DNA of 32,000 bases, taken from Longivirga aurantiaca. Lineage in GTDB: Bacteria > Actinomycetota > Actinomycetes > S36-B12 > CAIYMF01. This document shows, piece after piece, positions 12,057 to 20,559 of the stretch. Positions within the stretch are counted from its first letter, which is position 1; every line of letters begins with the position of its first letter. Where the stretch lies: NCBI RefSeq assembly GCF_042660085.1, contig NZ_JBHSTI010000008.1, forward strand, positions 1,149,876 to 1,181,875. The letters are read 5' to 3'. Both the position numbers and the translations under genes were made by a program. Under the pieces are notes generated by a model. That model worked only from the letters and a program-made list of their open reading frames with translations, made no database searches and had not been told where the DNA came from.

Positions 12057-13427
12057 GTGTCCGTCGATCAACGCCTGGCCGAGTTGTCGGCCGCCCTGCC
12101 CGGCGACGTCGTCGTCACCGACGCCGAGCGCACCGACAAGTACCGCTGGGACCGCGCGAACGACCCGCGGGCCGGTGTGCCGCTGGCTGTCGTTCGAGCG
12201 GAGTCGACCGAGCACGTGCAGACCGCGGTGCGGTGGGCGGCGAAGCACGGCGTGGCCGTCGTACCGCGTGGTGCCGGCACCGGCCTCTCGGGTGGTGCGA
12301 GCGCCATCGACGGGTGCCTCGTGATCTCGACCGAGCGGATGCGGGCGGTGGAGATCGACCCGCTCACGCGCATCGCGTACGTCGAGCCCGGGCTGCTGAA
12401 CGCCGAGCTCAAGGCCGAGGCCGCACGGCACGGGCTCTGGTATCCGCCGGACCCGTCGTCGTACGAGATCTGCTCCATCGGCGGCAACATCGCGACGAAC
12501 GCCGGCGGCCTGTGCTGCGTGAAGTACGGCGTGACCACCGACTACGTGCTCGGCCTCACCGTGGTGCTCGCGGACGGTACGGCGGTGGAGCTCGGCGGGC
12601 CGCGGCTCAAGGACGTGGCCGGCCTGCCGCTGACGAAGCTGTTCGTCGGGAGCGAGGGCACGCTCGGGATCGTCACGCGCATCGTGCTGCGGCTGGTGCC
12701 GGCGCAGCGCACGCCGTCGACCCTGGTGGCGACGTTCGCCTCGCTCGACGACGCGACCGCCGCGGTGCTCGCGATCTCGAGCCGGATGCGGCCGTCGATG
12801 CTGGAGTTCATGGACCGCGCGTCGATCAACGCGGTCGAGGACATGACGCGGATGGGCCTCGACCGGTCGGCCGAGGCGCTGCTCGTGGTGCAGTCGGACG
12901 AGCCGGCGTCATACGCCGCTGCGGAGATCGCCGAGGTCGGTGCGCTGTGCGACGCCCACGGCGCGACCGAGTGGTTCTCGACCGACGACCCGGACGAGGG
13001 CGAGCAGTTCGTGGTCGCCCGCCGCTCGGCGATCCCGGCTCTCGAGCTGAAGGGCGCGCTGCTGCTCGAGGACGTCGGCGTGCCGCTGCCGCGGCTGGGC
13101 GAGCTCGTGCGCGGGATCGAGGCGATCAGTGCCGACCACGAGGTGCTGGTCGCGGTGGTGGCGCACGCCGGTGACGGCAACACGCACCCGCTCGTGGTGT
13201 TCGACCCCGCGGACGCCGCTGCCACTGCTCGGGCGCAGACGGCGTACGACGCGATCATGCGGCTCGCGATCTCGCTCGACGGCACGATCACGGGCGAGCA
13301 CGGCGTGGGGCGGATGAAGCAGCCGTGGCTGCGCGACTACCTCGGCGCCGACGTGCACGCGCTCAACCGGCGCATCAAGGACGCGCTCGACCCCCAGGGC
13401 ATCCTCAACCCCGGCGCGGGCATCTGA
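12057..13427 (+). CDS. FAD-linked oxidase (GlcD / D-lactate dehydrogenase family)
   Basis: I chose the GTG at 12057, after ggaagagg. It has an FAD_binding_4 pattern (AVVPRGAGTGLSGGA...GGNIATNAGG) and a C-terminal FAD-oxidase domain (GTITGEHGVGRMK...DPQGILNPG). Confidence 0.9.
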   Translation: MSVDQRLAELSAALPGDVVVTDAERTDKYRWDRANDPRAGVPLAVVRAESTEHVQTAVRWAAKHGVAVVPRGAGTGLSGGASAIDGCLVISTERMRAVEIDPLTRIAYVEPGLLNAELKAEAARHGLWYPPDPSSYEICSIGGNIATNAGGLCCVKYGVTTDYVLGLTVVLADGTAVELGGPRLKDVAGLPLTKLFVGSEGTLGIVTRIVLRLVPAQRTPSTLVATFASLDDATAAVLAISSRMRPSMLEFMDRASINAVEDMTRMGLDRSAEALLVVQSDEPASYAAAEIAEVGALCDAHGATEWFSTDDPDEGEQFVVARRSAIPALELKGALLLEDVGVPLPRLGELVRGIEAISADHEVLVAVVAHAGDGNTHPLVVFDPADAAATARAQTAYDAIMRLAISLDGTITGEHGVGRMKQPWLRDYLGADVHALNRRIKDALDPQGILNPGAGI

Positions 13428-13438
13428 CGGTCGGCGCC

Positions 13439-13550
13439 CTAGCCGGGTGGCGATTCCGTCGCAGAGCGCACGCTGGCTACCCGGGTAAGCCGAGGACGCG
13501 GTAGGTGAGTGGTGAATCCGTCGCAGAGCGCACGCTGGCTACCCGGGTAA
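13439..13550 (+). repeat. Array A of the 62-bp-period interspersed repeat (2 units)
   Basis: The cores are 13439-13488 (ctagccgggtggcgattccgtcgcagagcgcacgctggctacccgggtaa) and 13501-13550 (gtaggtgagtggtgaatccgtcgcagagcgcacgctggctacccgggtaa). The array lies between the convergent stops at 13427 and 13567. Confidence 0.9.
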
Positions 13551-13566
13551 CGCGGCGGCGGGATCG

Positions 13567-14430
13567 CTAGGGCGTGGCCCAGGTGTCGAGCCAGGTCTCG
13601 ATGGGCTCCTGGACGACGCCGACGGCGATCACGCTCATGTGGTCCTCGCCCGCGAGCACGTCGAGCTCGACCGGGATGCCGGCATCCTCCAGCGCGCTGG
13701 CGAACGACCGCGACTGCGACAGCGGCACGACGTCGTCGCCGTCGCCGTGGATCAGCAGCACCTGCACCGTCGACGGCGCGGCACCGGTCTGCACGTAGTG
13801 GATCGGGTCGCCCGACTCCCAGAGCGCCACGTCGTCGGCGCGCGGCGTGCCGAACCAGTCGGCCATCATCGGCTGGAACGTCTGGGTGTCGTAGATCCCC
13901 GCGAGCCCCACCACGCCGGCGATCTCCGGGATCGGGTCGGCGCACGGGCGGGCGAGCGTCGTACCCGACACGGCCGCGAGCGCCGCGAGATGCCCGCCGG
14001 CCGAGTGGCCGACGAGCACGACCGGCCCCGGCTTGGGCTCGGACCTCGAGGCGAGCGCTGCGGCGTACGCCGTGGAGCAGAGGACGTCCTGCAGCGACGC
14101 CGGGAAGCCGATGCCCTCGTTGCCCGCGCGGTACTCCGTGGTCGCGACGAGGTAGCCGGCGTCGGACAGGCCCGTCGCGAGCGGCATGAACCCGGTGCTG
14201 TCGTGGCTCTGCCAGCCGCCACCCGGCACCAGCACGATGAGCGGCACCGTCGGTCGCGCGGGGACGGCGACGGGGGAGTAGAGCGTGGTGGTGAGCGAAG
14301 GGTCGAACGTCGACGGCGACGGGCTCGGCGGCGGTGGCGTCGTCTCGAGCGGCCCGGTCGACGACTGGCTGCAACCGGTCAGCAGCAGCGCGAGCGCGGC
14401 CCCGGCGATCCAGCGCGTGCGCATCCCCAT
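13567..14430 (-). CDS. Alpha/beta hydrolase lipoprotein (esterase/lipase family)
   Basis: The signal peptide carries a lipobox (ALALLLTGCSQ). The nucleophile elbow is GHSAGG, and LIHGDGDDVVP has the C-terminal Asp/His region downstream of it. Confidence 0.85.
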   Translation of the reverse strand: MGMRTRWIAGAALALLLTGCSQSSTGPLETTPPPPSPSPSTFDPSLTTTLYSPVAVPARPTVPLIVLVPGGGWQSHDSTGFMPLATGLSDAGYLVATTEYRAGNEGIGFPASLQDVLCSTAYAAALASRSEPKPGPVVLVGHSAGGHLAALAAVSGTTLARPCADPIPEIAGVVGLAGIYDTQTFQPMMADWFGTPRADDVALWESGDPIHYVQTGAAPSTVQVLLIHGDGDDVVPLSQSRSFASALEDAGIPVELDVLAGEDHMSVIAVGVVQEPIETWLDTWATP

Positions 14431-14636
14431 GCCCGCATCCTCGCGCAGGACCGCCGGAGGTCGCAGGCGCGCCGCCGCGGCGACCCAGCGAGGTCGTCCG
14501 GACGCACCGCGTCACCAGCGCCCGGGCGGCGGCGTCTGGGCGCGACTCAGCCGCGCGAGAGCGCTAGGAAGGGAGTAGTTACGCGGCGCTGTCGGGGTGT
14601 CGGCCTCCGCGCCGTGAGCGCGAGGAGGCGAGTCCG

Positions 14637-15092
14637 GTGTCGTACGTGGTCACGGTCGAACGGGTCGAGGAGCAGCCAGCTGCGGTGGTGCACGGCCGGG
14701 TGGACGTCGACGACCTCCCGGAGTTCCTCGGGCGCGCGTTCGGAGACGTCCTGCGCACCCTGGCGACCCAGCACCTGCATCCGGTCGGCCCGCCGTTCGG
14801 CCGCTACCAGGTCGATGGCGACGTGTTCGAGGTCGAGGCGGGGTTCCCGTGCGACGGGGTCCCGACCCCGGTCGGCGACGTCGAGCCCTGCACGCTGCCG
14901 GGAGGCGAGGTCGCCACGACGCTGCACACCGGCGACTACCAACGGATCGGGGCGGCCTACCAGGCCGTCGCCGAGTGGATGGGCGAGCACCACTGGCAGA
15001 TCGCCGCAGCACCCTGGGAGTCGTACGTCGACGACCCGACGGTCCTCGAGCCGCGCACGATCGTGCGCTTCCCGGCTCGGCGGGCCAGCTAG
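14637..15092 (+). CDS. GyrI-like small-molecule-binding domain protein
   Basis: The GTG start lies 8 nt after GAGGAGG. The 151-aa pattern (VERVEEQPAAVVHGRV...EVEAGFP...LPGGEVATTLHTGDYQRIGAAYQAVAEWMGEH) is typical of GyrI-like/AraC-effector-binding folds. Confidence 0.8.
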   Translation: MSYVVTVERVEEQPAAVVHGRVDVDDLPEFLGRAFGDVLRTLATQHLHPVGPPFGRYQVDGDVFEVEAGFPCDGVPTPVGDVEPCTLPGGEVATTLHTGDYQRIGAAYQAVAEWMGEHHWQIAAAPWESYVDDPTVLEPRTIVRFPARRAS

Positions 15093-15114
15093 CGGCCGTG
15101 GAACGGAGGGCGTG

Positions 15115-16002
15115 ATGGACGCGAGGCAGCTCGAGAGGATGCGGGACGGCGCCGGCTTCATCGCCGCGCTGGACCAGAGCGGCGGGAGCACCCCGCGAGC
15201 ACTGGCGCTCTACGGCCTCGACCAGACGACGTACAGGACCAGCATCGAGATGCTGGCGCTCGCGCACAGGATGCGCACGCGCATCGTCACCAGCCCGGCC
15301 TTCACCGGCGAGCGGATCATCGGGTCGATCCTCTTCGGCGACACGATGGAGAGGCACGTGGAAGGCATGGGCACCGCCGAGTACCTGTGGCACGTCAAGG
15401 AGATCGTGCCCTTCCTCAAGGTCGACCACGGCCTCGAGCCTGAGGAGCACGGGGTGCGTCTGATGCGCAGGATCCCCGATCTGGACCGCGCCCTCGACAA
15501 GGCCCTGGGACACGGGGTGTTCGGCACCAAGATGCGCTCGGTCGTCGTCAGCGCCGATCGCCCGGGCATCGAGGCAGTCGTCCGTCAGCAGTTCGAGTTC
15601 GCCCGCCGGATCCTCGACGCCGGGCTCGTCCCGATCATCGAGCCCGAGGTCGACATCCGCAGCCTGCAGAAGGAGGCGGCGGAGGACCTGCTGCGCGAGT
15701 ACCTCCTGCACGCCCTCGACATGCTCGGGGACGACGACCGCGTGATGCTCAAGCTGACGCTGCCCGAGGTGGACGACTACCACGCGCCGCTCGTGGCGCA
15801 CCCGAACGTCCTGCGCGTCGTGGCCCTGTCGGGCGGCTACAGCCGTGCGGAGGCGGTGGAGAGGCTCGACCTGCAGCACGGGGTGATCGCGAGCTTCTCG
15901 CGGGCGCTCACCGAAGGCCTGCGCGTCGAGCAGACCAAGGCCGAGTTCGACGCCGCGCTGCACGAGTCGGTCGAGAGCATCTACCGCGCGTCGTTGACCT
16001 GA
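15115..16002 (+). CDS. fda: Class I fructose-bisphosphate aldolase
   Basis: It is near-colinear with my recollection of the Gram-positive class I Fda proteins. Shared segments include GFIAALDQSGGSTPRAL, FGTKMRS, PIIEPEV, the Schiff-base context VMLKLTLP, VVALSGGYSR and ASFSRAL. The ATG at 15115 follows GGAGGG. This is the 3' part of the long 787-aa ORF. Confidence 0.92.
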   Translation: MDARQLERMRDGAGFIAALDQSGGSTPRALALYGLDQTTYRTSIEMLALAHRMRTRIVTSPAFTGERIIGSILFGDTMERHVEGMGTAEYLWHVKEIVPFLKVDHGLEPEEHGVRLMRRIPDLDRALDKALGHGVFGTKMRSVVVSADRPGIEAVVRQQFEFARRILDAGLVPIIEPEVDIRSLQKEAAEDLLREYLLHALDMLGDDDRVMLKLTLPEVDDYHAPLVAHPNVLRVVALSGGYSRAEAVERLDLQHGVIASFSRALTEGLRVEQTKAEFDAALHESVESIYRASLT

Positions 16003-16799
16003 GGCGTCCTGGTGTCGTGGACGTCGTACGCGAGGGACCGGAGCGTGAACTCGCCGTACGCGAACGGGCCGTCCGGGCGCTCGTAGAGCGCTGATCCCTG
16101 GGTGGCGACGCGTACGCCGTCGGCCATCGGGCGGTAGCCGGCGAGCGGCGTGCGCCACCGCATCGGCACGAACGTGCCCGTGCTGCTGTCGGGGCGGTCG
16201 TCGGACCAGAAGTCGGCGAGCAGGCCGTCGTCGCCGAAGACGAGGGTGGCGGCGACGGTGTGCGGGCCGTTGGTGAAGGTGACGCGCGCGCTGCGGTCGT
16301 CGACGGCGTCCCACGCGAGACGCGGGTCGACCAGCGCGCCCGGTGCCAGCACGCACATGTCGTTGAGCACCGTGACGGTCTCGGCGCGGCTGATCTCGGA
16401 GCCGGACAGGTCGACCATGTCGACGAGCGAGGCGACGCGCACGCGGAAGGTCGCGTGCTCCTCGCGGTAGAGGTGCAGCGCGCGCACCGGCAGCCCGAAC
16501 ATCCTGGCGTCCATGAGGAAGAGGCGCGTCGGACGGTCGAAGAGGTTGTACTGCACCGACGTCGACCGCATCGGCCTCGCGCCTGGCGCACGCCGCATCG
16601 CGGCGTCGAACTCGACGCGCATGCTCTGCGGCGCAGGGCGTCCGAGCGCACCTGTCTCGCGGAGGTAGCGGCGTACGGGGTCGGGGAGGGGCGCGATCGC
16701 CTCCTCGTCGAGCGGCGGTCCGATGGTGGGCTCGAGGGTGTCGAGCTCGTGCGCGACGGCGGCGTCGAACTGCTGCCGGAGGTCGATCCGGATGGTCAT
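15981..16799 (-). CDS. Conserved hypothetical protein (DUF6544-like by recollection)
   Basis: I take the ATG at 16799, preceded by GGAGGTGCGCG; it forms a 4-nt ATGA overlap with the upstream membrane-protein stop. GC3 is high. The family assignment is from memory of the PDPVRRYL ... W(R/K)TP pattern. Confidence 0.7.
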   Translation of the reverse strand: MTIRIDLRQQFDAAVAHELDTLEPTIGPPLDEEAIAPLPDPVRRYLRETGALGRPAPQSMRVEFDAAMRRAPGARPMRSTSVQYNLFDRPTRLFLMDARMFGLPVRALHLYREEHATFRVRVASLVDMVDLSGSEISRAETVTVLNDMCVLAPGALVDPRLAWDAVDDRSARVTFTNGPHTVAATLVFGDDGLLADFWSDDRPDSSTGTFVPMRWRTPLAGYRPMADGVRVATQGSALYERPDGPFAYGEFTLRSLAYDVHDTRTPQVNDAR

Positions 16800-17188
16800 C
16801 GCGCACCTCCGACCAGCGTGTGCGAGCGGTGCGACAGCGCGAGCGCGCCGAGGCCCAGGAGGATGACGACGTCGATCACAGCGCCGGCGGCTGCGGCGGG
16901 CAGCGCGAGCAGGCACGCGACGAGCGAGAGAGCGGCGAGGGCGGCCGTGAGCGGCAGGGCCCATGCGGAACGGCGTACGACGCCGACACCCGCCACCACG
17001 AAGCCCACGGCGAGGGCGAGCCATACGGCTCCGACCACGCGCATCCCGGTGGCGCCGAGGTCTGCACCGAGGAGATCGGTGCGGTAGGGGAAGCCGTCGA
17101 GCGTGGCGAGCTGCCACGGGACGACGAACCCGATGAGGTGGATGAGGCCGTGCGCTGCAAGGGCTGCACCGGCCAGGACGCGCATCAT
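16796..17188 (-). CDS. Small integral membrane protein (4 predicted TM segments)
   Basis: 130-aa hydrophobic ORF (HGLIHLIGFVVPW...). The RBS GGAAG lies 7 nt upstream, and the gene starts 13 nt downstream of the marR stop. Confidence 0.65.
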   Translation of the reverse strand: MMRVLAGAALAAHGLIHLIGFVVPWQLATLDGFPYRTDLLGADLGATGMRVVGAVWLALAVGFVVAGVGVVRRSAWALPLTAALAALSLVACLLALPAAAAGAVIDVVILLGLGALALSHRSHTLVGGAR

Positions 17189-17201
17189 GACGTGCTTCCT
17201 T

Positions 17202-17681
17202 TCATCGGTCGTGCGTCGCGCCGGGGTGCTCGGGGGCGAGAGCCGCGAGCCAGGCGCGGGTGAGGTCGCGCAGTGCGAGGACGTCGCCCCGCGGTACGCC
17301 GTCGAACGCCGTCCCGAGCAGGGCGCGCGACCGCGCGACGCCCTCGGGCGAGTCGAACCGGCGTACCTGCTCGGTGACGGTGATCCGGGTGGTCCGCGCG
17401 TCGGCGGGGTCGGTCTCGAGCCGCACCCAGCCGCGCTCCTGGAGGCCGAGGGCGATCTGCTTCACGTTCTGCCGCGAGCTGCCGTAGCGCTCGGCCGCCT
17501 CGCTGAGCGACGGGGAGCGGTCGGGGAACGCCGAGGTGAGGACGGCGAGCAGCAGCCACTGCCGGGTGGTGAGACCCCAGTCGTCGAGCGCGGCGTCGGC
17601 GCGGCGGGTGAGGTGCTGGGCCAGGACGAACAGGGTGCCGAACGCCTCGGCCTGCGCCTGCTCCAGCTCGATGTCGGCCAT
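17202..17681 (-). CDS. MarR family transcriptional regulator
   Basis: 159 aa with a winged-HTH core (LTTRQWLLLAVL...PSLSEAAERYGSSRQNVKQIALGLQERGWVRLETDPADARTTRITVT). Confidence 0.9.
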   Translation of the reverse strand: MADIELEQAQAEAFGTLFVLAQHLTRRADAALDDWGLTTRQWLLLAVLTSAFPDRSPSLSEAAERYGSSRQNVKQIALGLQERGWVRLETDPADARTTRITVTEQVRRFDSPEGVARSRALLGTAFDGVPRGDVLALRDLTRAWLAALAPEHPGATHDR

Positions 17682-17682
17682 G

Positions 17683-17700
17683 TGCGTAATATATTACGCA
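17683..17700. promoter_or_regulatory. Perfect 18-bp AT-rich palindrome: candidate MarR operator overlapping -10-like hexamers
   Basis: TGCGTAATATATTACGCA is its own reverse complement. It abuts the marR ATG (17681) and is the most AT-rich spot in the window. It contains TAATAT and TATATT (TANNNT) on both strands. Confidence 0.6.
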
Positions 17701-17856
17701 TATGGCCCGGCGGGAAGGGGGCGGCGGCGTGAGCCGCGTCTCGTCGGGCCTCGCCCAGGTCGCGGGAGCGCCGACCACGGGCGAGGATGCAGGCACGGCC
17801 GCGTCGCGGCCCGCCGGGTGCCCGGACCTGGACTCGACGACCTTCGCAGGAGAGTC

Positions 17857-18432
17857 ATGCGCGCCCGACTTCCTCTCGCCGCCACGGCCCTCGCCCTCGC
17901 TGCCGTGCTCAGCGGCTGCAGCAGCCACTCGTCCGACATGGCCGGCGGCACGGCCGCGATCGTGGCGGGTCAGCAGGGCGACATCGCCTTCGCCCAGCTG
18001 ATGATCCCGCACCACGAGCAGGCCGTGGAGATGGCCGACCTCGCCCTCGAGCGCGAGACCTCGCCGGAGGTGAAGGCCCTCGCCGAGCAGATCAAGGGTG
18101 CGCAGGACCCCGAGATCGAGCAGATGACCGCGTGGCTCGCCGCATGGGGCGCGCCCACGCAGATGCCCGGCGTCGAGCACAGCGGCGACCACGCGGGGAT
18201 GCCCGGGATGATGAGCGACGACGACATGTCCGCGCTGGCCGATGCACAGGGTGCGGCGTTCGACGAGAAGTGGCTGACGCTCATGATCGCCCACCACGAG
18301 GGCGCCCTCACGATGGCGCAGCAGGTGCTCGGCACGACCACCGATGCCGAGGTGCGCACGCTCGCGGAGGCGGTCGTCGCCGGCCAGAAGGCCGAGATCA
18401 CCGAGATGACGGCGCTGCTCGCCCGCGCGTAG
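17857..18432 (+). CDS. DUF305 family lipoprotein (four-helix-bundle, metal/copper-associated family)
   Basis: I take the ATG at 17857, after AGGAGAG. It has a lipobox (ALAAVLSGCSS) and a duplicated DUF305 signature (FAQLMIPHHEQAVEMA and WLTLMIAHHEGALTMA). Confidence 0.88.
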   Translation: MRARLPLAATALALAAVLSGCSSHSSDMAGGTAAIVAGQQGDIAFAQLMIPHHEQAVEMADLALERETSPEVKALAEQIKGAQDPEIEQMTAWLAAWGAPTQMPGVEHSGDHAGMPGMMSDDDMSALADAQGAAFDEKWLTLMIAHHEGALTMAQQVLGTTTDAEVRTLAEAVVAGQKAEITEMTALLARA

Positions 18433-18602
18433 CTGAGTGGCGAATCCGTCGTAGAGCGCACCCTCGTTACCCGGGTACATCGGCGACGGCGTAGCTGAGT
18501 GGCGACTCCGTCGTAGAGCGCACCCTCGTTACCCGGGTACATCGGCGACGGCGTAGCTGAGTGGCGACTCCGTCGTAGAGCGCACCCTCGTTACTCGGGT
18601 AG
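18429..18602 (+). repeat. Array B of the 62-bp-period interspersed repeat (3 units)
   Basis: The cores start at 18429, 18491 and 18553 (gtagctgagtggcgaMtccgtcgtagagcgcaccctcgttacccgggta) and are separated by the linker (c)atcggcgacggc. The third unit has ttactcgggta. The TAG stop of the DUF305 gene (18430-18432) lies inside unit 1. Confidence 0.92.
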
Positions 18603-18703
18603 GCAGGCGCCGGTGTCCGAGGTGTCCACAGCTGGCGGTGAGCGGCGCGTCGTCCACGTGCGGAGGCTGAGCCCGGCCGCGTACGTCGTACCGCCCCGTC
18701 AGC

Positions 18704-19648
18704 GTGCGCGGCATGACCGGACGCACGCACGCCCTCGACCTCGTCCCCGGCCTGCGGGAGCTGGCCCGCGCCCAGCTCGGCGTCGTACGCCGCGATCAGC
18801 TGCGCGAGCTCGGCGTCGGACATCAGCATGTGCGCCGTCAGGTGCAGGCGGAGCGGTGGCGTGCGATCGGGCCGCACGCCGTGGTGCTGCAGACCGGTGC
18901 GCTGTCCCGTCGGCAACGGCTCAGCCTCGGCGCTGTGCACGCCGGTCCGGGCAGCGAGCTCGACCTGTGGTCGGCGCTGGAGCACGCCGGACTCCGCGGG
19001 TGGGAGAGGTCGGCGGTGCACGTTGCGGTGCCACGAGGCAGGCGGGTTGCGCGGCTGGACGGGGTGGTCGTGCGTCAGGTGTCAGCTCGACCGCCGGCTG
19101 CCGTGGACGGCCCCTGGCCGCCCGCCGCACCGCAAGCGAGGGCCGCGGTCGAGGCTGCGTGCCTCGAGCGCACCGACACGTCGGCCGCCGGGCTGCTCGT
19201 TGCGGTGGCGCAGCAGCGGGTCGCGACCCCCGAGGCGATGCGCCTCGAGCTCGACCGGCTCTGGCGGCCGCGACGCGCTCCGCTGTTGCGCGCTGCGCTC
19301 TACGAGGCGGGTGCCGGCTCGGAGTCCGTCGCCGAGATCGACGTCCTCCTGCTGGTGCGGCGGGCCGGGCTCCCCGAGCCTCGGCGGCAGGTGCTCGCGC
19401 TGACCCCGGATGGCGTGGAGAAGCTCGACCTCGTGGTCGACCTGCCGGACGGGCGCACCCTGGTCATCGAGGTGGACGGACCGCACCACGACGACTCGAG
19501 CCGGCGGGCAGGGGACGCGGCGCGGGACGCTGCCCTCATCGCTCTGGGCTACCTGGTCCTGCACATCCCGGTGATCGAGATCCGCACCGACCCGGCCGGC
19601 GTCGTACGGCGACTGCGCCGCATTGCGCAGGCTGCACGCGCTGGCTGA
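18704..19648 (+). CDS. DUF559 endonuclease-like domain protein with an AbiEi-like N-terminal region
   Basis: 314-aa ORF with a GTG start. The C-terminal DUF559/Vsr-like pattern is DLVVDLPDGRTLVIEVDGPHHDD...DAARDAALIALGYLVL. The N-terminus (LGVVRRDQLRELGVGHQHVRRQV) resembles the HTH of AbiEi-type proteins. Confidence 0.8.
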   Translation: MRGMTGRTHALDLVPGLRELARAQLGVVRRDQLRELGVGHQHVRRQVQAERWRAIGPHAVVLQTGALSRRQRLSLGAVHAGPGSELDLWSALEHAGLRGWERSAVHVAVPRGRRVARLDGVVVRQVSARPPAAVDGPWPPAAPQARAAVEAACLERTDTSAAGLLVAVAQQRVATPEAMRLELDRLWRPRRAPLLRAALYEAGAGSESVAEIDVLLLVRRAGLPEPRRQVLALTPDGVEKLDLVVDLPDGRTLVIEVDGPHHDDSSRRAGDAARDAALIALGYLVLHIPVIEIRTDPAGVVRRLRRIAQAARAG

Positions 19649-19752
19649 GTGGCGATTCCGTCGTGGAGCGCACGCTCGTTACCCGGGTAACGCAGGGCTT
19701 CGATAGGTGAGTCGGGATTCCGTCGTGGGGCGCACGCTCGTTACCCGGGTAA
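19641..19752 (+). repeat. Array C of the 62-bp-period interspersed repeat (2 units)
   Basis: The cores are 19641-19690 (ctggctgagtggcgattccgtcgtggagcgcacgctcgttacccgggtaa) and 19703-19752 (ataggtgagtcgggattccgtcgtggggcgcacgctcgttacccgggtaa). The TGA stop of the DUF559 gene (19646-19648) lies inside unit 1. Unit 2 ends 6 nt before the convergent apbE stop. Confidence 0.9.
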
Positions 19753-19758
19753 CGGGCG

Positions 19759-20559
19759 TCAGGTGAACGCGGGGCCGAAGAACTCGGCGCGGCCGTCCTT
19801 GACGAGGTAGACCGACCACTCGGGCAGGCCCACGAACCAGCGGTTGCAGGTGGGGCCCTCGACGAGGCACGCGGTGGCGAGGGCGTCGGCGAGGCCGGCG
19901 TCGGGGCCGACGACGGTCGCGCTGTCGTAGTGGACGCCGAAGTCGCCTGTCACGGTGTTCGCGATGTGCGAGCCACGCTCGTAGAGGCCGCTCGTCGCGA
20001 CCGCCCAGCCGTCGGGCACCGTCACCGCGCGGATCACCGACTGCGTGTCGTACGGGTTCGTGATGCCCACGGTCCACAGCTCGCCGGGCGACTGGAAGCC
20101 GCGGCAGGCGATGTCGCCGGAGGCGTTCACGCACACGTTCGGCACACCGCATACGACGAGGAGGTCGGCCACCACGCCGGCCGCCCAGCCCTTGACGTAG
20201 CCGCTCGGGTCGACGCCGCCGCGCACGGCCCACGGGTCGAACACGCCGTCAGTCAGCGCGCGGGCGCCGGCGCATGCGTCGAGCACCGTCCGCACGATCG
20301 ACGGCAGCCTGAACTCCTCGAGCAATCCGTTGCGGTACATCGTGATCGGGGTGTCGGCGCGGTACGTCGAGAACCACGCGTCGACCTGGTGCAGGTACGC
20401 CACGGCGTCGTCGACGATCGAGTCGATCCCGGTCGTCAGCACGGGCGCACGCAGGTCGAGCACCACGTGGGTGCCCCACACCGGCTCGACGTGGATCCTC
20501 TGCTCCCACGCACCGGGACCGGCGTACGAGACGAGGCCGTCCGTGCCGAGCCCGGTCAC
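19759..20559 (-). CDS. apbE: FAD:protein FMN transferase (ApbE family)
   Basis: 266 aa with ApbE-like segments (VDAWFSTYRADTPI, GVDPSGYVKGWAAG, AVATSGLYERG, DALATA). The GTG start overlaps the upstream stop (GTGA). Confidence 0.88.
   Translation of the reverse strand: MTGLGTDGLVSYAGPGAWEQRIHVEPVWGTHVVLDLRAPVLTTGIDSIVDDAVAYLHQVDAWFSTYRADTPITMYRNGLLEEFRLPSIVRTVLDACAGARALTDGVFDPWAVRGGVDPSGYVKGWAAGVVADLLVVCGVPNVCVNASGDIACRGFQSPGELWTVGITNPYDTQSVIRAVTVPDGWAVATSGLYERGSHIANTVTGDFGVHYDSATVVGPDAGLADALATACLVEGPTCNRWFVGLPEWSVYLVKDGRAEFFGPAFT

Follow-up and report, generated by a model that had tools for sequence, protein, structure and literature searches.

An AbiEi-HTH/DUF559 gene flanked by its own hairpin repeat family in Longivirga aurantiaca: a candidate enzyme-and-repeat partnership of actinobacteria, functionally analogous to REPIN-RAYT

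In a 32,000-nucleotide stretch of the Longivirga aurantiaca genome (contig NZ_JBHSTI010000008.1, positions 1,149,876 to 1,181,875, forward strand; "the window", whose own numbering is used below wherever no contig is named), a gene for a protein with an AbiEi-type helix-turn-helix (HTH) and a DUF559 nuclease domain, here P1, lies between two arrays of a 62-nt repeat, here the F1 family. The genome of the window (G000) amounts to 3.67 Mb at 72% GC in 71 contigs. Homologous loci in other actinobacterial genomes suggest that the gene and the repeat belong together. The features of the locus are as follows.

13438-13561, + strand: array A, two 62-nt F1 units starting 11 nt past the stop of an FAD-linked oxidase gene that ends at 13427 (pattern search; Pfam for the upstream gene)
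17857-18432, + strand: DUF305/CopM-family lipoprotein gene, frame open from 17536, TAG stop within the first unit of array B (open reading frame, ORF; Pfam)
18427-18612, + strand: array B, three 62-nt F1 units 5' of P1, palindrome TACCCGGGTA, third unit degenerate (sequence; Tandem Repeats Finder, TRF)
18613-18712, + strand: leader of about 100 nt from the last upstream unit to the ATG (55-130 nt in homologues; sequence)
18713-19648, + strand: P1, 311 aa, with an AbiEi-like winged-helix N-terminus, a middle domain and a C-terminal DUF559/Vsr-like PD-(D/E)xK domain (Pfam, PADLOC, AlphaFold2, Foldseek, invariant residues)
18752-18859, + strand: AbiEi_4-type HTH region, residues 17-52 counted from GTG 18704 (Pfam 19.8 bits, below cut-off; AbiEi structural match)
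19457-19615, + strand: DUF559 nuclease core region, residues 252-304 counted from GTG 18704, motif IEVDGPHHDD (Pfam, alignment, Foldseek)
19640-19758, + strand: array C, two 62-nt F1 units; palindrome CGTTACCCGGGTAACG, 16 nt (sequence)
19759-20559, - strand: gene for ApbE (FAD:protein FMN transferase), conserved as the neighbour on the right of P1 (Pfam)

The original prediction, made from the letters of the window, had placed the gene at 18704-19648 and had described its product as a DUF559 protein with an N-terminal HTH. The ORF at 18704-19648 (+) in the ORF list of the window is indeed the P1 gene; its start codon, however, is likely ATG 18713 and not GTG 18704, because the protein then begins MTGRTHALD..., which matches the homologue N-termini MTGR(T/S)H(A/P)LD.... 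The domain description was borne out. P1 matches DUF559 (PF04480) at residues 252-304 with 27.9 bits, above the gathering threshold of 20.6, and more weakly the restriction endonuclease family MTES_1575 and the AbiEi_4 HTH, while PADLOC returned only weak AbiEi matches (residues 17-130); since it gave nothing else, a role of P1 as a defence-system component was dropped. An AlphaFold2 model built with 71 homologues reached a predicted local distance difference test (pLDDT) score of 92.3 and a predicted template modelling (pTM) score of 0.78. In Foldseek comparisons of this predicted structure, the N-terminal two-thirds of P1 resemble the AbiEi antitoxin 6y8q (E 3.5e-4) and Rv2827c (1zel), and the C-terminus resembles the DUF559 protein NGO0050 (3hrl; TM 0.73 relative to the target), the catalytic domain of the homing endonuclease I-Bth0305I (3r3p; TM 0.76 relative to the target) and R2 restriction-like endonuclease domains. 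A sequence-based search of the PDB returned just noise, above E=1. Among the homologues, E208, D239, D255, G256, H259 and D268 are invariant, and D246, E253 and D272 nearly so. Public annotations call relatives of P1 very-short-patch-repair endonucleases, AbiEi-family antitoxin domain proteins or hypothetical proteins. No homologue was found among 72,556 plasmids, and a single weak match was obtained among 50,697 phage records.

As had been proposed, P1 is bracketed by three direct units about 100 nt upstream (array B) and by two direct units over its stop codon (array C). The array B units match at 98% (TRF score 336); the TGA stop of P1 (19646-19648) lies in the first unit of array C, and array C leaves no free sequence before the convergent ApbE gene, whose stop is at 19759. 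The F1 core pattern occurs seven times in the window, compared with no match in 100 shuffles. The proposal that every unit ends in the palindrome TTACCCGGGTAA is correct in part: TTACCCGGGTAA is confined to arrays A and C, where it is extended to 16 nt, but the array B units carry the 10-nt palindrome TTACCCGGGTAC, and the third of them reads TTACTCGGGTAG. The original TGA stop of the CopM/DUF305 gene, which is kept in the relatives G007 and G018, is gone in G000, and a TAG supplied by the first unit of array B is used instead. The C-terminal tail of the G000 protein is thereby altered at 18425-18432, where the ORF runs to the TAG of the repeat.

F1 was also considered as a structured RNA, and this reading was rejected: Rfam gave nothing relevant on 13300-20000, lone F1 units fold no better than shuffles, and RNAalifold on 64 units found no consensus pairs. 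Strong pairing in the arrays occurs solely between the palindromes of neighbouring units. The idea of a tRNA-derived unit, which came from a likeness of TAGAGCGCAC to a D-arm seen by eye only, was likewise dropped. A scan for promoter and terminator consensus sequences was empty; the P1 leader has no match to the sigma-70 consensus.

Across G000, F1 forms about 23 arrays with about 45-51 units. (The genome-wide covariance-model search scored the best 150 candidates per genome, and pattern counts throughout are lower bounds.) Thirteen of these arrays lie within 134 kb around the window, almost all of them on the + strand, and the arrays usually begin 0-25 nt past the stop of a co-oriented gene; the adjoining genes include SMC/FtsY, DapF, Pta, SerS, UppS, PheA, a GlcD-like oxidase, MscS and a DinG-like helicase. 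Besides P1, Pta and one other G000 gene are bracketed by F1 arrays. At G000:C8:1135707-1135857 and 1149736-1149825, the latter just before the start of the window, partial F1 units stand head to head as 32-nt perfect palindromes (CGCACGCTCGTTACCCGGGTAACGAGCGTGCG) and not as direct tandems. The exact F1 core was found in just two other public genomes, the same-genus metagenome-assembled genomes (MAGs) G007 (JBBQAY01) and G018 (CAWJMG01). G000 itself holds two further P1 homologues, P2 (45% identical) and P3 (31% identical), neither of which is near F1. The Y1 transposase family PF01797 has no match anywhere in G000, while the controls of this search respond.

A sequence-only covariance model of the F1 unit gave weak matches in another genome, G026, to a related family of true hairpins, ACCTGGGTGKCGATTC - CGTCGCAGAGYGGTC - GAATCRCCACCCAGGT. 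Positions 6-31 of the F1 unit are the counterpart, by homology, of the 5' arm and loop of these hairpins. The P1 homologue of G026 (55% identical) sits at a different site, behind RecQ, and has two of these hairpins upstream and one inverted copy 6 nt past its stop. In a flank test, the 400-450 nt upstream and downstream of each fetched homologue were compared in both orientations against mononucleotide shuffles. A shared 40-75-nt hairpin or array was present at 12 of 12 loci in the first genus set (z 8.7-40), at both of the other G000 homologues, and at 17 of 18 further genus and family loci (z 12-51; one at 5.8), some of them from another genus with 32-34% identity. For genus and family together, 31 of 32 loci are bracketed on both sides by one shared 40-75-nt hairpin, and in other Actinomycetes families (33-46% identity) 17 of 27 loci reach z>=8, with four more borderline; among 300 random coding-like G000 ORFs of 200-500 aa, only three reach that value.

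The layout of these loci is regular. The bracketed ORFs encode 309-330 aa, the distance from the upstream element to the ATG is 55-130 nt, mostly 75-92 nt, and the downstream element either overlaps the stop codon or starts within 0-13 nt of it. At P1 the flanking copies are direct; the other loci have a mixture of direct and inverted copies. Several MAG contigs terminate exactly at homologue genes, as would be expected if repeats break assemblies. Within the genus, 20 of 27 genomes have a P1 homologue; across the class, homologues are present in 160 of 301 sampled genomes and 93 of 140 genera. The original prediction had asked whether paralogues are flanked by the same repeat. They are not; each is instead flanked by its own family, and genome comparison thus ties the gene family to dispersed hairpin repeats in a specific, conserved and lineage-matched manner. 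A first reading of F1 as a repeat family like the mycobacterial interspersed repetitive units (MIRUs) or the repetitive extragenic palindromic (REP) elements, placed at the 3' ends of genes and bracketing P1 by chance, initially seemed highly probable; it had rested on the housekeeping neighbours, on the paralogues without F1 and on the F1 units of G018, which lacks the gene. It was dropped because every paralogue turned out to have a flanking family of its own.

The three control genes with a flank-shared repeat are a dienelactone-hydrolase-like gene (G000:C8:1779792-1780553, z 54), a gene for a protein with internal SGGPDVAERA repeats (C8:1051087-1051854, z 17.6) and a major facilitator superfamily (MFS)-type transporter gene (C2:360109-361362, z 16). 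A copy of F3, the third repeat family of G000, lies near the first of them. F3 (GATGAAGGCGACCTTCATCCAATAGAGCCGAACAAT) has 36 copies, one of its sites being G000:C8:113544-115167, and takes the form of full 55-nt palindromes or of gene-enclosing inverted pairs with a spacing of 0.7-3 kb. One such pair encloses P3, itself a DUF559 homologue, together with one more gene, and at two G000 sites F3 sits where G018 carries an F2 hairpin.

The second G000 gene, P2 (C8:1587826-1588758), lies between direct copies of the F2 hairpin, CGATTYGGTAGTGG...CCACTACCRAATCG, about 52 nt in length. F2 is dispersed in G000 in 18 exact-arm copies and about 30 looser ones (up to 33), and 17 of 29 copies sit 1-17 nt past a stop codon. 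Another family, GCTTTGGATG...CATCCAAAGC, has 11 copies in G025 and four in G021. The loop motif CGCGTCGYRGRGAGCGCG is found 57 times in G021, 38 in G025, 23 in G007, 16 in G012, 15 each in G020 and G026, 11 in G004 and 10 in G008, against 0-4 for reversed-pattern controls, and it stays at control level in all seven genus genomes without a homologue (G002, G003, G009, G013, G014, G019 and G027). Many of these matches are in tandem with a period of 61-63 nt, and the 62-nt arrays of the window are therefore typical of the superfamily. Across these genomes the repeats are dispersed at 10-60 copies each, mostly 0-25 nt past stop codons.

In a maximum-likelihood tree of 34 proteins, the grouping follows the hairpin family: the clades that correspond to F1 (support 100/100), GCTTTGGATG (100/98), F2 (100/97) and CGTGCCAGCGCG (99/94) were recovered, and the TCGA-ATGTG hairpin type forms a basal grade that the protein tree does not resolve. 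G025 has two sister gene copies with the same hairpin family. At G018:C3:256285-256412, an F1 unit directly adjoins a GCTTTGGATG...CATCCAAAGC hairpin, two families being present at one site.

The two G000 pairs, P1/F1 and P2/F2, can be followed through the three sister genomes that carry the exact F1 core.

G000: P1 present, 51 F1 units; P2 present, 18 F2 copies
G007: P1 present (87% identical, same locus, three units upstream and four downstream), 32 F1 units; P2 orthologue not found in this 88%-complete genome, 2 F2 copies
G018: P1 not found in this 92%-complete genome of three contigs, 12 F1 units; P2 orthologue present, 26 F2 copies

The G018 orthologue of P2 is flanked by F2 at C3:732235-732284 and 733310-733359, and the remaining 25 genus genomes have no F1 and at most one F2 copy. 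The expectation that the repeat family co-varies with the protein subgroup was thus confirmed, by the match of clades and hairpin families and by the reciprocal counts of these three genomes; by comparison of the genomes, repeat sequence co-diverges with the protein and repeat numbers follow the presence of the matching gene. Ten of the 11 F1 arrays of G007 occupy sites that carry an array in G000 too. The same holds for all seven mapped arrays of G018, an eighth site (C3:256285) being outside the mapping; the F1 remnants of G018, few in units and at sites shared with G000, therefore fit decay after loss of the gene.

A comparison of synteny for the segment 18429-19752 had been proposed, and G018 lacks almost precisely this segment: CopM and ApbE are adjacent, and window 18425-19760 is replaced by about 62 nt. 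In metagenome contigs with a 71%-identical P1, the gene order is P2-like gene, esterase, P1, ApbE, FMN-binding protein, ferric reductase. P1 adjoins ApbE in G000, in G007 and in these contigs, and this adjacency is therefore old. The repeat unit of the contigs is a proper hairpin, GTAGCTGTGTGGCGATCGCG - TCGCAGGGAG - CGCGTTCGCCGTACAGCTAC, with one copy upstream and two downstream at a 62-nt period, the stop codon being within the unit. By comparison with it, the TTACCCGGGTAA palindrome of the G000-type F1 unit is a derived 3' arm, and the derived unit no longer forms a hairpin alone. The G018 spacer, which nhmmer missed with the G000-type unit, was recognised through the ancestral form as one solo hairpin unit: it agrees with the ancestral type at 43-45 of 51 positions (88%), compared with 35-36 of 52 for the derived G000 unit. 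Such a remnant would be expected from recombination between the direct copies on either side, by analogy with a solo long terminal repeat (LTR). Phylogeny could not polarise the indel, G000, G007 and G018 being about equidistant; it is read as a loss because of the P1-ApbE synteny in the distant contigs and the solo unit in G018. At the position of array A, G018 does not offer a clean empty site.

Turnover of the repeats was followed at 20 F2 sites of G018 in comparison with G000. Two sites hold F2 in both species, with identical outer arms, a species-specific inner stem and loop, and flanks that are 90-93% identical. Three G018 sites are clean empty sites in G000, three carry a different family there, and four coincide with indels of 0.65-3.8 kb; the others have no orthologous G000 counterpart (two with rearranged flanks, four in regions absent from G000, and two unjoinable across contigs). 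The spacer between SMC and FtsY is short and repeat-free in G007 and G025, contains two F1 units in G000 (C8:878355-878475), contains in G021 four tandem units of that genome's own family, the one that flanks gene G021_b, and contains an unrelated repeat in G018. It resembles a natural landing pad, empty in two species and occupied by three families in three others. The genome comparisons thus show that hairpin repeats turn over, homogenise, change copy number and settle empty intergenic sites lineage by lineage. The P2 orthologues of G000 and G018 are only 61% identical, compared with 93% for the adjoining DNA, and the protein therefore evolves fast. A further observation is that one G007 contig (C111) unites the outer flanks of two G000 F1 arrays 25 kb apart (C8:1119428 and 1144126), which could reflect either a rearrangement (deletion or insertion) at the arrays or a MAG misjoin.

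Based on these comparisons, we consider it probable that P1, the product of a single-copy gene inherited with the chromosome, is the partner protein of F1, and that it represents an AbiEi-HTH/DUF559 and hairpin-repeat partnership that is widespread in actinobacteria and functionally analogous to REPIN-RAYT. The RAYT/REP-like arrangement raised in the original prediction is supported, since the comparative data overturned the chance reading, in the sense that the system may work like a RAYT, as comparative evidence suggests, and not that it is a member of that class. In such a partnership, the winged HTH (wHTH) module would bind the arms of the repeat as a dimer, either on the duplex or on an extruded hairpin, and the Vsr-like domain would nick or cut at or near the conserved loop CGTCGYRGRG(AG)CGC. 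Repair of the break by copying, template switching or end-joining could produce new insertions, and it could also lead to expansion and contraction of the 62-nt tandems, to homogenisation within a genome and to deletions between direct copies. The upstream copy probably doubles as an operator for autoregulation; AbiEi proteins bind inverted repeats and autoregulate through them. More tentatively, it is possible that AbiEi-HTH/DUF559 proteins constitute a second, HUH-independent class of repeat partner, in which each lineage would maintain, spread and homogenise its own hairpins via nuclease-triggered repair, and that MIRU-type repeats of actinobacteria are products of this process.

The fold of P1, which matches the AbiEi antitoxin and Rv2827c, would also suit a regulator, namely an autorepressor of the AbiEi type or a factor that binds or processes RNA, for which the hairpins serve as the operator and 3'-end elements of a small regulon and have been spread by other means. 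The autoregulation of AbiEi via inverted repeats, the upstream hairpin at promoter distance (55-130 nt) and the hairpins 1-17 nt after the stops of many genes are consistent with this explanation, and Vsr-like RAP domains work on RNA in mitochondria, according to PMC11879112. Regulatory sites would be expected to be conserved, yet the F2 sites turn over between 90%-identical species and leave clean empty sites, and which family occupies the SMC-FtsY spacer depends on the species. In addition, the adjoining genes have housekeeping roles and are unrelated to one another, the nuclease residues do not vary, and tandem arrays of variable copy number would be left unexplained, so that a regulator of this kind seems unlikely.

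We regard it as quite improbable that the DUF559 gene is itself the mobile element, similar to a homing endonuclease or an insertion sequence (IS), and that it cuts pre-existing hairpins and inserts into or beside them, so that it comes to lie between two copies; the hairpins would then be targets and not passengers. The presence/absence difference does cover exactly array, gene and array, the C-terminal domain resembles the catalytic domain of I-Bth0305I, paralogues occur at varying places near the P1 locus in relatives, and G025 has its two sister copies with one hairpin family. A selfish gene, however, would not be expected to occur usually once per family and genome when 10-60 possible targets are available, to remain beside ApbE down to 71% identity (or, for P2, behind a left flank syntenic at 93%), or to be absent from the 72,556 plasmids searched, and the G018 site has the appearance of a deletion with a solo unit left behind rather than of a target that was never occupied. 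Coincidence, in which F1 would be a MIRU-like family of variable number tandem repeats (VNTRs) unrelated to the gene, with P1 in a repeat-dense region that happens to have arrays in two neighbouring spacers, can draw on the 13 of about 23 arrays in 134 kb around the window, on the bracketing of Pta and another gene, and on the housekeeping genes beside most arrays. It is very hard to credit, since it is already contradicted by the 31 of 32 flanked loci against 3 of 300 controls, and different paralogues have different flanking families, proteins and repeats co-diverge, and copy numbers are reciprocal in three sister genomes.

Several points weigh against P1 as the partner of F1. Binding, cleavage and mobilisation are all steps that we infer from comparison, and we know of no way for a PD-(D/E)xK nuclease to transpose DNA. 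The copy number of 10-60 is far under that of typical REPINs, and the flanking copies are direct at many loci, including P1, and not inverted as at RAYT genes. At the class level, 10 of 27 loci have flanks without a clear common element. The original prediction had counted repeats without the gene as evidence against it, and formally this is the situation in G018, which keeps F1 without P1, although with only 12 units and with seven arrays at sites shared with G000. Hairpins right after stop codons could be plain terminators. Finally, most of the genomes are MAGs, in which repeats are prone to assembly error, and kin genomes are non-independent observations.

A partnership between P1 and F1 would have several implications. 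It offers a testable function for a large orphan family, the DUF559 proteins with an AbiEi-type N-terminus. To our knowledge, partnerships of a repeat family with a resident enzyme have so far been known only for HUH transposases (RAYTs), and the present case suggests a separate origin in high-GC Gram-positive bacteria, with an enzyme of the restriction-endonuclease fold. It also provides a possible origin for the copy-number-variable intergenic tandem repeats of actinobacteria and would account for assembly breaks and local rearrangements at homologue loci. The matched protein-DNA pairs of one genome, P1/F1 and P2/F2, would be natural sets for studies of specificity evolution. A literature search, which left subscription journals largely outside its coverage, found no report that links DUF559 to repeats or describes an association of AbiEi/DUF559 with repeats.

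Among known systems, P1 may first be compared with AbiE type IV toxin-antitoxin (TA) systems, as AbiEi (6y8q) and Rv2827c (1zel) are the best structural matches of its N-terminal winged helix and the following domain. Unlike in AbiE, no AbiEii (DUF1814 nucleotidyltransferase) gene lies beside P1, whose neighbours are CopM/DUF305 and the convergent ApbE, and the C-terminal nuclease domain of P1 is absent from AbiEi. That domain shares its fold and an acidic/His motif with Vsr/DUF559 proteins (NGO0050, 3hrl) and with I-Bth0305I (3r3p). However, Vsr is a single-domain enzyme paired with the Dcm methylase and directed at T:G mismatches, whereas P1 has three domains in 311 aa and no methylase neighbour; homing endonucleases reside in introns, inteins or split genes, and P1 has no such context. 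An insertion sequence, for which several near-identical gene copies with terminal inverted repeats would be expected, differs as well, given that the G000 homologues of P1 are only 45% and 31% identical to it and that no homologue was found on plasmids. In integron cassettes with attC sites, an imperfect palindrome comes directly after the ORF, and the palindrome that belongs to the neighbouring ORF stands before it. The P1 loci share this layout of ORF and palindrome, but here the "cassette" is always the same gene family, the palindromes are dispersed one by one downstream of housekeeping genes, and there is no neighbouring integrase. With MIRUs, F1 has in common that 40-100-bp tandem intergenic repeats of an actinobacterium are co-oriented with the upstream gene, touch or overlap its stop and vary in copy number between relatives (array C has two units in G000 and four in G007). 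MIRUs, reportedly described by Supply and colleagues in 1997 and 2000 as devoid of dyad symmetry, are not known to have a partner gene; F1, in contrast, has a 10-16-nt palindrome, descends from a true hairpin and brackets its cognate nuclease gene.

The closest parallel is REPIN-RAYT of the Proteobacteria, whose properties are taken here from excerpts of PMC3116915, 10.1101/119735 and 10.1101/2021.07.10.451892. As these excerpts describe it, short palindromic extragenic repeats are dispersed mainly behind genes, a single chromosomal gene has copies of its own repeat family on either side, a genome may contain several such pairs of gene and repeat, inheritance is vertical, and repeat populations shrink upon gene loss; in all of these respects the P1 system is alike. 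The co-variation of repeat family and enzyme lineage is shared too, here in the protein tree against hairpin family and in the reciprocal counts. On the other hand, P1 combines a wHTH with a PD-(D/E)xK (Vsr/DUF559) domain and is not an HUH Y1 (IS200/IS605-like) transposase; the copies number tens and not hundreds and often stand in tandem, repeating every 62 nt or so; the flanking copies often run in direct and not in inverted orientation, and arrays B and C are direct tandems, in contrast to the inverted doublets of dispersed REPs; and the host phylum is Actinomycetota. The P1 system is therefore not a member of REPIN-RAYT, because it lacks the defining HUH transposase and its repeats have another orientation and copy number. 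The comparison points to an AbiEi-HTH/DUF559 enzyme-and-repeat partnership, of which we found no prior description and which differs from REP/RAYT by its enzyme.

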